NCBI GenBank assembly: GCA_964016885.1
Contig: OZ024751.1
Span: forward strand, 23,746,001 to 23,810,000
Reading direction: 5' to 3'
Length of the DNA stretch: 64,000 bases
Source: Eledone cirrhosa
Taxonomy: Eukaryota
The position numbers and the translations under genes were made by a program. Below, piece by piece: positions 4,789 to 26,437 of this stretch (position 1 is the stretch's first letter; each line of letters begins with the position of its first letter). Below the pieces are notes generated by a model. The model was not told where the DNA came from and searched no databases. It saw only the letters and a list, made by a program, of their open reading frames with translations.

Positions 4789-6024
4789 ATGGAGCTTAAA
4801 ATTTCCGAAATAATACAGATAATGCTATTAACGTTGTATTTTGCTTTGATTATGTCTCCGAATATATCGGTAGTAAAGTCCCAAGCTACATACGACGATG
4901 AAAAACTACTGCATGCTAAATTGTTGTCCAACTATAACAAAGATATAAGACCAGTTATTAACGTGACTACTACTGTTGAATTATATACTTTGTTATATCT
5001 TAACACGCTCTATGACTTGGACTTTGTAAATAACATACTTAAGAGCCAATTCTACTTTGGAATAATGTGGTCTGATCAACATATGACCTGGGACCCAGAG
5101 GAATATAACAACATTACATCTATATATCTACCGAAAAATAAGATATGGATGCCAAATATAGCAATGTGTAATTCAATGAAAGAATCAGAAGATGCAGACA
5201 GTTCTTCAGAAGTCAAAATCTCTTATACTGGATTGATAGAATCATGGTCACCGAAATCGTTACAAACATTTTGTCAAGTAAATGCTTACACCTATCCATT
5301 TGATGATCATATGTGCGAAATTTATGTCTGTGTCGCAATGCACACTGCTGTACATACGAGAATAAAAACACTCACATACGAGGATTTCAATTTTATAAAA
5401 AACTATAAATGGCATATTCAATTAACTGGTGTAGTCAATGGCACAGGTGACGACTTCAGCTACGCATTTGCTCAGATGTTCTTACGACGTAAAGTCACTG
5501 TAGGTATTATTGCGATGTTGAGCCCTTCAATCATGATGACACTTTTAACTATCTTTGTGTTTCTTCTGCCCCCTGAATCAGGAGAGAAAGTCTCTTTAGC
5601 AACAACGATATTTTTATCAAATGTCTTATACCTCGTTCAAATAGATAAAACGACGCCTAAAAACTCAAAATACCCTTCACTTCTGATGTTGTATTTAATG
5701 TTGTTATCAATGTTCAGTGGAGTTGCCACACTTGGTTCAGTGGTTATAAGTAAATTGTATGTTAACCAAACAGCTAAAGAAAAGAACTCATCGGATTTAG
5801 ATCAAAATAATACCAAACCTCACGGTAACAAAATTGCTGATGTTTCACTAATTTCCACAGCCCAACCTTATCCTGCCATGACACAGGAAAGGTCAAAGTT
5901 AAAACGATGGTTTTACATCTCTGACTACGTACGACTTGACAACATTTTTCTAAAACTTAGCGTTGTAACATCAATAATAATTGCAATATTATTTGTAACT
6001 TTATTGTTTACACCTCTGGATTAA
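4789..6024 (+). CDS. Intronless Cys-loop ligand-gated ion channel subunit, cephalopod chemotactile-receptor (CR)-like, copy 1 (411 aa from ATG 4789)
   Basis: Signal-peptide-like N-terminus (MELKISEIIQIMLLTLYFALIM), EKLLHAKLLSNYNKDIRPV helix, WDPEEYNNI, IWMPNI and Cys-loop C-x13-C (CQVNAYTYPFDDHMC, 5272-5316). Also LRRK pre-M1, LPPESGEKVSL M2 and four hydrophobic TM segments. No vicinal CC in loop C, no loop B Trp. The ORF track starts at a TTG (4741); ATG 4789 aligns with the paralog's upstream ATG. Confidence 0.93.
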   Translation: MELKISEIIQIMLLTLYFALIMSPNISVVKSQATYDDEKLLHAKLLSNYNKDIRPVINVTTTVELYTLLYLNTLYDLDFVNNILKSQFYFGIMWSDQHMTWDPEEYNNITSIYLPKNKIWMPNIAMCNSMKESEDADSSSEVKISYTGLIESWSPKSLQTFCQVNAYTYPFDDHMCEIYVCVAMHTAVHTRIKTLTYEDFNFIKNYKWHIQLTGVVNGTGDDFSYAFAQMFLRRKVTVGIIAMLSPSIMMTLLTIFVFLLPPESGEKVSLATTIFLSNVLYLVQIDKTTPKNSKYPSLLMLYLMLLSMFSGVATLGSVVISKLYVNQTAKEKNSSDLDQNNTKPHGNKIADVSLISTAQPYPAMTQERSKLKRWFYISDYVRLDNIFLKLSVVTSIIIAILFVTLLFTPLD

Positions 6025-6144
6025 GTAATTCTAAAATATTGAAAAGTGAATCCCAAGTATTTTGTCAAAAATTACTGAAAGCAGATTTCGAAAAAAAATG
6101 CCTTTCAAAATATGTGAAACTTAATAACACATACACAAACAGGA

Positions 6145-22375: not shown

Positions 22376-25237
22376 GTATATATATATATATATATATATA
22401 CATACATACACACATATATATATACACACACACACACACACATATATATATATATATATATATATATATATAGTGAGAGATAGATAGAAAGAGAAGGAGA
22501 ACCTGACGGAGAAACAAAGCATATATTGCTTCGGCATTGTTGATCAATATTTTCAATATACATCGACTGAAGATTCCAACGATACAAGATTTTCCGATTT
22601 TAATTCCTTTTGAAAGTGCTGCTAACATTCATGACACCAGGGAATTCCCGGCCTTTTTTCTACCACGCCATAAAAAGCTCCTTTTAGTCATTAGCTATGC
22701 AGTGTCCACATAGAACTGGGTGGAGTTTTAACTTCTCTAACATTGCATACAATATTTTGCATTACTACAAGCTGAAGTAGGCGTTCGTTGTTCCTAGTTT
22801 AAGATTTTGTTTTATATAACTGTGTTATATATATACCACTGCTAATATCCACGAAGGTTCATTTTCTGCTTCCCTCTGCAATTGGTGACTCACTAATCTA
22901 GTAATCTACTACCTTTCATCACGCTAATATAAATCCATTTGATCACAGCGGTTCTAACTAGAAACCCGTCTATCTCTTCACAGCATATATCAAACGTCAT
23001 ACAAATACTTGTCAGAACGTCAACCTTCTCACATAATTTCGATTCACTGCATATATTGATAATCTAAATAAAATTGGATTTAACAAACATATAATTACGT
23101 ATAGATTCTGAACGGTCATATTTGAAAGTCTGATTTCGAAATAAGGTCAGTATACGAATTACACATCTCGCTTTATATTTGTTTTATTTTCTCTAGTTTC
23201 CAAATATGTTATTGTGTGAGCTTAGTAAGATATTCTATACATATTTTAAAGTTATATATATATATATATATATATATATATATATATATATATATATATA
23301 TGTTGTTGTTGTTGTTGCTACAGCTTACACCTCCTCCAAGGTTGTATCTCATTGGAGGTTTCTTGGGTGTTTTAATTATAGGGACACCAATCCTATCATT
23401 ATATATATATATATATATATATATATATATATATATATATATATATATATATATATATATACATATGTATATATGTAAGTGTATATGTGTGTATGTGTTT
23501 TTAGCCCGGGTCGAATCGTTATAGTCCTGTAGAAGCCATTTCTATATTAAATACACACACACACACACACACACACACACACACACACACACACACACAC
23601 ACACACACACACACACACACACACACATATATATATATATATATATATATATATATATATATATATAAATATATATATAAATATATATCTATGTATGTAT
23701 ATATGTATATATATATGTTTGTGTGTGCGTATGTATGTGTTTGTAAAACTCTTGTACTCAATACAATGTGTTGATCTCCTTACGATCACCCACGTTCTCA
23801 CGTATTAATCAGGTAAATACCGTGAGATCTCTAAGATGAATGTTTGATGTCAATTTTACGACTAGTTGTTAATTTCGCATTTCTTTTTCAGTTTCTGCAT
23901 GACATGTATTTCTAAACAGCATCCGTGATTTCCCTTTATCATTCTCCTGTAAAATGTTTCATTTCTAAGTAGTTATAACCGATATTATGGTTCGGTCAAG
24001 CTTCTGCATTCTGCTGGTGCCTTGTAACCCAGTAAAATATGTTTCATCGTTAGGTAGTTGGTGACTAAATCCTTTCCACAATCAAACCCCTGTCTGGTGA
24101 GGAGAGTAAACAGAACCTCCTCTCCAGCACGAAAATAACAAGAGCGGTTAAAATGGCGGATGACCTCCTCAGAGTCAACGGCCAACTATGGAATTTCGTC
24201 ATTGTCTTTAGTTGTGGTTACTGTTGTGTTATGATGTGTTTACAATCCTACAATCGTATTATTTCTATTCTAATTTACGGACATGACCAAGCTTTCTTTC
24301 ATCAGAGCGGCAGGGGGATGTCAAGTAACTATATCTTAGTACTTGACCGCTACGTTATTTATCGATCCTTGGAAGGTGAAGAGCAAAGTTGAGTTCAGCG
24401 AAATTTGAACTCAGAAAGTAAAAGCAGGAACAAATAAGGAAACGTATTCTCAATCCACCGTGCTTACTTACAGTCTGATATTAATATAAAGTGGCTTGCT
24501 TTTATACTGTATGATGCGTTTCAAAATTTCATTCATGTTTATTACTGATCCAACGAGTTTGTTTTTCAGGTTGCTGGTTCATCGCTTTTTTTTACTTACG
24601 ATGCTGACTACAGATCATTATCTGATGTAGACATAAGAATCGCAATCCATTCTTTAACAGGGATATCATCAACTTCACTGCAATAACGAAAGAGGAATTA
24701 AAACTTCGATATACGTTTGGAAATAAAATAGTCATTTGCAAAGAGAAAAAAAGAGAAAAAAATACTTGTGAAAAAGCAATATACCCAACAACAATAAACC
24801 AAGTACAAACTAGAATTCAATGGAATTATAAAAAAAATAAATATATTTGGGCGTATACAGCTGAATTATTCTATTCGGATGTATAATGACATTTACACTG
24901 TTAATATAGATCTTAATTGTTTCGTTCACGCGTTATTAGACATATTTTTCGATGAAAATATAAAGCCATCAAACACAGTTTGTTTCGATAATTTTCTCTT
25001 CAAATCCTCCATCTTAGCAAGAGTTCTATTCAGATATAAGTTCTTGTATCAATAACATCTCTTAAAAGCATTCGTGTAATACAAGAAAAAAGAAAAAAAG
25101 AATCATAAGAGGTTATTATACCTGTATACAAATTACAAAGAATTATAAATACATAACTGTTTTATATTTACAAAGAAACATTTATATGAACATAAGGAAT
25201 GAGCTCTAAGATTTAACCATCAGAAATATTTCAAGTC

Positions 25238-26437
25238 ATGATGTCAATCCTGAATTATGTTTTGATTTTGATACCAGTTATATCGGTAGTAAATCCCATC
25301 GCTACGTACGAAGATGAAAGACTACTACAAGCTACATTATTATCCAATTATAGCAAACATATACGACCTGTTATTGATTTGACTAAACCTGTCAATATAG
25401 ATACATTCATATTGCTTCACACACTTTATGATTTGGACTTCGTAAATAATATACTTATTGCTTGGTACCTAATTGGTCAAAAATGGAATGATGAACTGCT
25501 GAGATGGAATCCAGAGGAATACAACAACATTACAAGCATAAACCTACCGAAAGATAAGATATGGGCGCCAGATATCATAATGTGTAATTCAATGTCGGAA
25601 ACAGAAGATGAAGACATTCAGCCCAAAGTTAGGCTACATTTTAATGGAAGACTGGAAACGTGGTCACAGAAAGTAGTACGAACCTTTTGTCCAGTTGACG
25701 CTTATACGTACCCGTTTGATGAGCATGCCTGTGAAATTTGCATATCTGTTGCTGTGCATGAACCCCGCCATACTCGAATTAAATCCCTCACTTACACTGA
25801 TTTGAAATTTATAAAAAACTACCAATGGGATATCGATACCAATGATAAGGTAAATTCCACTGAGGGTATGTACAGCTACGCAACAGGTACGATTTATTTA
25901 CGGCGAAAACTCACACTAGCTATTATAGCTATGTTAATTCCCACTGCAATGATGACAATTTTAACTATTTGTGTGTTTATTTTGCCTCCTGAATCAGGAG
26001 AGAAAGTTTCCTTGGCAACAACAATATTTTTATCAAATGTCTTATACCTCGTGGAAATCGAAAAGACGACGCCGAAAAATTCCAAATCCCCTTCACTTCT
26101 GATGTTGTATTTGTTGTTGTTATCAATGTCAAGTGGAATCACTACACTTGGTTCAGTTGTTATAAGTAAATTGTATGTAAACCAATCAGCTAAAGAAAAG
26201 AAATCAACGACTTTAGATCAAAATAATACCAAACCTCGCGGTAACAAAATTGCTGATGTTTCACTAATTCCCACAGCACAATCAGATCCTGATCCTGTAC
26301 TGAAAGAAAAGTCTAGCAAAAATCGATGGTTTTGTGTCTCCGACTACGTACGGCTTGATGGCATGTTTTTAAAGGTTAGCTTTGTATTATCAATAATAGT
26401 TGCAACATTATTTACATATTTGATGTTAAATGCATGA
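25238..26437 (+). CDS. Intronless Cys-loop channel subunit, CR-like, copy 2 (399 aa)
   Basis: Gap-free paralog of copy 1 over the extracellular domain. Cys-loop CPVDAYTYPFDEHAC (25688-25732), LPPESGEKVSLATTIFLSNVLYL M2, short M3-M4 loop, hydrophobic N-terminal signal, no loop C CC. Confidence 0.93.
   Translation: MMSILNYVLILIPVISVVNPIATYEDERLLQATLLSNYSKHIRPVIDLTKPVNIDTFILLHTLYDLDFVNNILIAWYLIGQKWNDELLRWNPEEYNNITSINLPKDKIWAPDIIMCNSMSETEDEDIQPKVRLHFNGRLETWSQKVVRTFCPVDAYTYPFDEHACEICISVAVHEPRHTRIKSLTYTDLKFIKNYQWDIDTNDKVNSTEGMYSYATGTIYLRRKLTLAIIAMLIPTAMMTILTICVFILPPESGEKVSLATTIFLSNVLYLVEIEKTTPKNSKSPSLLMLYLLLLSMSSGITTLGSVVISKLYVNQSAKEKKSTTLDQNNTKPRGNKIADVSLIPTAQSDPDPVLKEKSSKNRWFCVSDYVRLDGMFLKVSFVLSIIVATLFTYLMLNA

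Follow-up and report, generated by a model that had tools for sequence, protein, structure and literature searches.

A stretch of 64,000 nucleotides from the octopod Eledone cirrhosa (assembly GCA_964016885.1, contig OZ024751.1, forward-strand positions 23,746,001 to 23,810,000; hereafter the window) holds two genes of the Cys-loop channel type, and raises the question of what these genes encode and how they came by their present sequence. We consider it probable that both encode CRT1-type subunits of the chemotactile receptor (CR) family, likely cation channels that do not answer to acetylcholine, and that the pore-and-tail half of one of them, gene 1, likely owes its sequence to gene conversion. 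The two genes are laid out as follows.

4750-6024, plus strand: gene 1, a single unbroken frame of 424 amino acids from its first ATG
4822, plus strand: likely start of gene 1, giving 400 amino acids; the first residue of CRT1 aligns with this, the third in-frame ATG
25238-26437, plus strand: gene 2, a single unbroken frame of 399 amino acids and the last CRT1-type copy of its array

A first-pass annotation of the window, made from the letters alone, had reported two same-strand Cys-loop open reading frames about 19 kb apart. Both frames are indeed intact and on the plus strand, separated by 19.2 kb of AT-rich and microsatellite-rich DNA. Of the three in-frame ATGs of gene 1 (4750, 4789 and 4822), it had taken the second as the start, which gives way to the third, favoured by the CRT1 alignment. 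Its description of the genes as single-exon holds for the coding sequence, which is intronless in both; the untranslated leader may still hold an intron. Both genes match the Pfam domains Neur_chan_LBD and Neur_chan_memb and they are 63% identical to each other. No further receptor copies or remnants were found within the window.

In the Protein Data Bank (PDB), the best match of both genes is CRT1 of Octopus bimaculoides, with E values of 3e-166 for gene 1 and 1e-146 for gene 2. Squid CRB1 comes next (5e-38 and 1e-40), and nicotinic and 5-HT3 receptors rank after CRB1 at E values near 1e-30 to 1e-37, the best nicotinic subunit reaching 1.5e-32 for gene 1 and 1.2e-37 for gene 2. Gene 1 is 64% and gene 2 59% identical to CRT1, against about 25-30% for nicotinic subunits. 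In a quick tree of 67 rows, which took 42 of the 87 protein-search matches and, like all our trees, was built without three partial nicotinic genome matches (L026-L028), both genes fall in a 33-row clade with CRT1 (support of 99 in the Shimodaira-Hasegawa-like approximate likelihood ratio test, SH-aLRT). This clade is nested in a 53-row receptor clade (SH-aLRT 99) that stands apart from 14 outgroup rows. The predicted folds match the CRT1 structure 8EIS best, with root-mean-square deviations of 1.5 Å for gene 1 and 1.9 Å for gene 2. Sequence matches, tree and fold thus support the assignment of both genes to the CRT1-type clade of CR subunits, and bear out the family membership that the first-pass annotation had proposed, including the grouping with CRs apart from the nicotinic outgroup. 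Because the genes group with CRT1 of Octopus, the family is, as had also been said, an already known one: its structures, ligands, cluster, intronless state and pocket diversification have been published. Compared with CRT1 (PDB 8EIS, 9E6B, 9E6C, 9E6D, 9YI4), both genes are alike in length, in their loop losses, in a short span between the transmembrane segments M3 and M4 and in the pore motif GEK, and they differ in the ligand pocket. Squid CRB1 (PDB 8EIZ) has family and fold in common with them and belongs to a separate clade, at 26-27% identity in the structural alignment. No protein among the 87 matches is more than 65% identical to gene 1, and identity among the CRT1 orthologs of Octopus is 82-87%, a gap that likely reflects an animal outside that genus, or paralogy.

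The loss of the acetylcholine site had been read from the letters, and an alignment of both genes with four nicotinic subunits agrees at each position named. The loop A tyrosine is replaced by cysteine (MCNS) in both genes and the loop B tryptophan by alanine (VCVAMH in gene 1, ISVAVH in gene 2), and loop C is six residues shorter than in the nicotinic subunits and has no vicinal cysteines. The loop D tryptophan is lost as well, to Tyr in gene 1 and Leu in gene 2. The M3-M4 span, likewise described as short, measures 61 residues in gene 1, 62 in gene 2 and 60 in CRT1, against 127-197 in five nicotinic subunits, and the GEK motif is kept.

5581-5589, plus strand: GEK cation-selectivity motif of gene 1, from the alignment
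25997-26005, plus strand: GEK cation-selectivity motif of gene 2, from the alignment
5167-5331, plus strand: cysteines of gene 1 (loop A Cys at 5167, Cys-loop 5272-5316, loop B Cys at 5329)
25583-25747, plus strand: cysteines of gene 2 (loop A Cys at 25583, Cys-loop 25688-25732)
25739 and 25745, plus strand: loop B of gene 2, Cys at 25739 (CRT1 position 148) and Ser at 25745 (CRT1 position 150)

The M2 pore segment of gene 1 is identical to that of CRT1, and in gene 2 positions 17' and 19' of M2 are both Glu, a feature shared with the proteins P0009, P0021, P0016 and P0025. Among divergent receptor copies further along the contig, the selectivity motif is altered to ESKQK in L018 and L019 and to STGER in L021. 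Both genes retain Cys96 of CRT1 and an acidic residue at position 104, Asp in place of the CRT1 Glu; the acid at this position tunes calcium entry in CRT1 (10.1101/2025.03.03.641191). Across the 53 family rows, the cysteines of loop A and loop B occur together in 44, are both absent in 4, and appear as loop A alone in 5 and loop B alone in none. Because the two cysteines co-vary across the family, they are likely partners, which suggests an extra disulfide between loops A and B. The five loop A-only rows all come from the Eledone genome (gene 2, L003, L004, L009 and L010). In gene 2, L003 and L004 a loop B cysteine lies two residues earlier, at 148 in place of 150, and may restore the bond. 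L009 and L010 keep the loop A cysteine and have no loop B partner.

The pocket of CRT1 comprises Y39, Y58, W122, F124, L153, S169, L191 and F192, all eight of which are mapped by a numbering offset of 20. Gene 1 carries Y39, Y58, W122, P124, M153, F169, D191 and F192, thus keeping four of the eight CRT1 residues (Y39, Y58, W122, F192), and gene 2 carries L, L, W, Q, V, L, M and Y in the same order, keeping only W122; the presumed CRT1 orthologs P0003 and P0004 have seven of eight. As judged from sequence, seven of the eight positions are non-polar or aromatic in each gene; gene 1 departs from this at Asp191 and gene 2 at Gln124. Neither progesterone nor norharmane evokes a response in the CRT1 mutants F124V, S169A, L191N, Y58V and C150A, and in L153M the progesterone response is lost (10.1101/2025.10.28.685082). 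Because gene 1 has Pro124, Met153, Phe169 and Asp191 and gene 2 only Trp122 of the eight, neither gene is likely to be a CRT1-like progesterone receptor, an expectation by analogy with mutants that carry other substitutions in another background. Since neither gene keeps the CRT1 pocket, the ligands of the two likely differ from those of CRT1 and, as the pockets also differ mutually, from each other's; the different ligands of the first-pass annotation are to this extent supported, by inference. Of the copies, gene 1 resembles CRT1 most in its 5' part, which is 62-64% identical to the CRT1 group and 56% to the next Octopus group; a clade uniting gene 1 with CRT1 as orthologs is absent from the best ligand-domain tree yet not rejected, with a P value of 0.324 in the approximately unbiased test (p-AU), and the 5' tree is a polytomy. 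On the ligand-binding-domain tree, gene 2 lies beside another group with support 57/28.

These two genes belong to a much larger set. A genome search gave 28 matches, of which 24 were near full length on the contig of the window (C11), one lay on contig C23 and the remaining three, the nicotinic L026-L028, were weaker and covered exon-sized pieces only. The 384 kb scanned around the window contain 26 copies, spread over the 307 kb from C11:23.618 to 23.925 Mb, which answers the suggestions that the genes are part of a CR array and that the flanking DNA might hold further copies. The array consists of 13 CRT1-type copies, all on the plus strand and ending with the two genes of the window, followed by 13 copies of a divergent group. 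Twenty-three of the 26 frames are intact, one has a stop and two are frameshifted. The term tandem pair therefore fits in that the two genes are clustered on the same strand; it does not fit in that they are two of 26 copies, and that the closest relative of gene 1 is a twin outside the window, L002, rather than gene 2.

3421-6183, plus strand: duplicated unit of 2.77 kb around gene 1, 96.8% identical to C11:23739949-23742698
C11:23741265-23742536: L002, twin of gene 1, 98% identical and 9.5 kb upstream
C11:23617934-23727675: nine-gene subfamily (L003-L006, L009-L013), a recent local expansion

In L002, position 39 is His rather than Tyr. The 30 or so bases that follow its stop match L004, L005 and L011 exactly, which suggests a further, more recent exchange at its 3' end. 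A false duplication of the twin is unlikely, because the two copies have just 2.77 kb of their 9.5 kb spacing in common and differ in the 3' flank (136/150). The subfamily made up of the nine CRT1-type copies upstream is young, with synonymous divergence (dS) of 0.01-0.14 in their 5' parts, and has no close relative among the sampled Octopus proteins. At its eight pocket positions it shows 2.0 additional amino-acid states per site, and 0.58 at the other sites (13 of 100000 random draws). In the ligand domain, nonsynonymous divergence (dN) is higher than dS for 27 of the 36 pairs, which are not independent; diversifying selection on the CR pocket is already published. In the divergent part of the array, the two frameshifted copies (C11:23860597-23861629 and 23866296-23867298) are 87-88% like L023 in their 3' parts and 44-52% in their 5' parts, and L025, which adjoins them, has an in-frame stop. 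L018, L019 and L021 are divergent copies on the minus strand at C11:23.913-23.925 Mb, and neither L018/L019 nor L020 has a sampled relative more than 31% identical. L024 (C23:18648350-18649432) is an intact receptor copy outside the array, related to L023. In O. bimaculoides, a cluster of 26 sucker-expressed CR genes lies on chromosome 15 (PMC9068888), and tandem, intronless organisation of CRs has been described (PMC11526382; PMC13174522). The two arrays are alike in being clustered and intronless, in their 26 copies and in their two deep groups. They differ in that nine Eledone copies are a recent local expansion and in that the identity of the Eledone copies to the sampled Octopus proteins does not go above 65%.

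Within this array, gene 1 is a mosaic. The first-pass account of it, sound as to family, missed both the twin and this structure.

4822-5532, plus strand: old 5' part of gene 1, with signal peptide, ligand-binding domain and first half of M1
5533-6045, plus strand: shared tract of gene 1, with second half of M1, M2, M3, intracellular loop, M4, stop and 3' flank

The DNA of gene 1 is 62-65% identical to that of the nine-gene subfamily over 4822-5532 and 91-97% identical over 5533-6009. The shared tract, whose first bases directly follow the M1 proline, continues for about 20-28 bases beyond the stop, where identity returns to background. Against L005, the closest member, 449 of 711 bases are identical before 5533, 464 of 477 after it and 68 of 176 in the 3' flank, and dS drops from 0.912 before the break to 0.055 after. 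When only codons for the same amino acid are used, the break falls at 5539 with eight of the nine members and at 5542 with the other, and was reached by 0-1 of 1000 shuffles for each of the nine. Comparisons between subfamily members show no slower evolution in the 3' part (dS 0.093 versus 0.142 for L003-L012 and 0.055 versus 0.116 for L005-L009). DNA trees of the two parts differ accordingly: on the 5' part gene 2 joins the nine (99/98) and a grouping of gene 1 and its twin with the nine is rejected (p-AU 0.015), and on the 3' part gene 1 groups with the nine (89/93). Identity in the intracellular part exceeds that in the extracellular part by 47 points between gene 1 and L003; the same difference over 45 O. 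bimaculoides protein pairs has a mean of -5.8 and a maximum of +14, so that the strong 3' homogenisation seen in Eledone is not seen in those pairs. Gene 2 shows a weaker, older step against gene 1 (dS 1.03 in the 5' part and 0.38 in the 3' part; 3 of 1000 shuffles), and no significant break separates gene 1 from L002 (58 of 1000 shuffles). The tract is present in both twins and equal to no paralog, the best non-twin reaching 96%, and no other donor was found in the genome, where all 13 matches are known CRT1-type genes. With a boundary on either side, a copy in each twin and no paralog that matches it exactly, the tract is better explained by gene conversion than by constraint, unequal crossing-over or misassembly, and we consider regional conversion the likely source of the pore half that gene 1 shares with the nine-gene subfamily. 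Both halves of gene 1 are nearest to CRT1 and the 5' half of the subfamily falls outside a 23-row clade (86/96); this points weakly to gene 1 as the donor, although long-branch attraction could produce the same pattern. A search for outside relatives of the subfamily ligand domain found none among 85 candidates, and was too insensitive to settle the point, as relatives at 47-49% exist.

A mosaic of this kind has a parallel in fugu protocadherins, which undergo regional gene conversion with raised GC content at third codon positions (GC3) in the converted tracts (PMC1852091). There too, tandem paralogs combine a divergent 5' recognition part with a near-identical 3' part that includes synonymous sites, and conversion biases whole-gene trees. 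The Eledone case differs in that it concerns an ion channel, that the border lies in mid-M1, that GC3 does not rise, and that it shows one clear recent tract with weaker older ones rather than wholesale homogenisation. The alpha7/5-HT3 chimera is a swap of the sensor and pore halves of two channels. The halves of such channels are swappable (PMC4586589), and general background is given in PMC10338036 and 10.64898/2026.06.15.732144.

Taken as a mechanism, these observations would fit the following course. Old duplications would have given different ligand-binding domains, and later the tract from mid-M1 to past the stop would have been copied, in either direction, between the lineage of gene 1 and the nine-gene subfamily, leaving different sensors on what is nearly one channel module. 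By analogy with the family, the subunits would form pentameric, calcium-permeable cation channels in sucker cells, which may open when a poorly soluble molecule delivered by touch, not acetylcholine, binds between subunits. It is possible, although we hold it with less than even confidence, that the whole array works as a modular kit, in which conversion repeatedly spreads a single module of pore and intracellular parts, running from mid-M1 as far as the stop, across paralogs while the pockets diversify fast. If this were true, dozens of subunits would stay able to co-assemble and signal alike, nature would have made its own sensor-pore chimeras, and whole-gene trees and site-selection scans of the family would be distorted.

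Several observations count against parts of this account. The quick tree includes neither a cephalopod canonical nicotinic subunit nor a row known to belong to the 'CR-like' clade of PMC13174522. On the 3' part of the DNA, gene 2 with the nine is not rejected (p-AU 0.079); in the 5' protein set with Octopus, neither is gene 1 with four subfamily rows (p-AU 0.094), nor, in the protein tests, one clade of the seven tested rows from its own genome (p-AU 0.236). GC3 is 34% before the tract and 31% within it. Other pairs also have lower dS in the 3' part (L014-L016, 0.44 versus 0.17; L014-L017, 2.1 versus 1.0), which may reflect more conversion or a regional rate effect. Finally, gene 2 is without Cys150, whose loss silences CRT1.

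This last point favours an alternative that we regard as unlikely but worth weighing, namely that one or both genes are CR subunits that function solely within mixed pentamers or away from the suckers, tuning other subunits rather than sensing alone. CR subunits multimerise and only some function as homomers in expression systems (10.1101/2025.03.03.641191), gene 2 also lacks most of the CRT1 pocket aromatics, and a common transmembrane half would suit co-assembly. Against it, both genes have a full pore, a Cys-loop and a mostly hydrophobic pocket, and the possible repair of the loop A-loop B bond by Cys148 would weaken the argument from gene 2. Improbable, in our judgement, is a reading in which the near-identical 3' half comes from strong purifying selection acting on the pore, from slow mutation of the region or from a mix-up of paralogs in the assembly. 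Transmembrane protein identity is high among CRT1-type receptors (66-91% in O. bimaculoides pairs) and the flat GC3 would suit such a cause, yet the signal is there at synonymous sites (6/147 versus 38/102 codons), takes in the normally variable intracellular loop (93%, against 31-67% in O. bimaculoides pairs) and runs into the non-coding 3' flank with sharp ends; its occurrence in both twins without an exact match to any single paralog speaks against a mix-up.

We give still less weight to the idea that one or both genes, though intact, are silent or in decay within a birth-and-death array. Three broken copies among 26, the redundant twin of gene 1 and several changes private to gene 1 at 5724-5823 would agree with decay, whereas the frames are complete, dN between the two genes is far below dS (0.31 versus 1.03 in the 5' part, 0.15 versus 0.38 in the 3' part), and the AlphaFold2 models are well folded, with mean predicted local distance difference test scores of 81 and 80. 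That the genes are ordinary acetylcholine-gated nicotinic beta (non-alpha) subunits is very improbable. Their Octopus relatives bear the database name 'acetylcholine receptor subunit beta-like', and nicotinic beta subunits likewise have no loop C cysteines; however, the tryptophans of loops B and D are missing too, identity to CRT1 is about twice that to nicotinic subunits, and both genes are intronless where the three weaker genome matches cover exon-sized pieces only. The reading of both genes as CRT1-type CR subunits, with a converted pore half in gene 1, accordingly remains the one that we prefer.

Within that reading, the mosaic matters more than the addition of two members to a known family. 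The two genes offer test material from an octopod far from the species studied so far, and their pocket changes at positions that silence CRT1 yield direct predictions for ligand screens. Gene 1 and its nine neighbours form a natural series for separating ligand choice from gating and assembly, and the mosaic warns that orthology and selection analyses of CRs are better split at M1. Such conversion may be either favoured or incidental. We found no report of gene conversion among CRs in the literature, a search whose coverage stopped short of the main family papers and the preprint supplements; the main texts of both CR preprints mention neither 'recombination' nor 'gene conversion'. These paralogs and their mosaic may already be covered in those papers or in the supplements, which include a list of 30 species mined for 235 receptors.

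Elsewhere in the window, three open frames have the look of retrotransposon remnants, one of them judged by eye.

53565-54617, plus strand: open frame with a zf-RVT match below the cut-off (E value 7e-4)
56940-57719, plus strand: open frame with a zf-RVT match (E value 2e-6)
12782-13576, minus strand: open frame resembling a retrotransposon remnant, judged by eye

Minisatellites lie at 15947-16371 (83 bases), 32856-33421 (38 bases) and 38910-39499 (201 bases).

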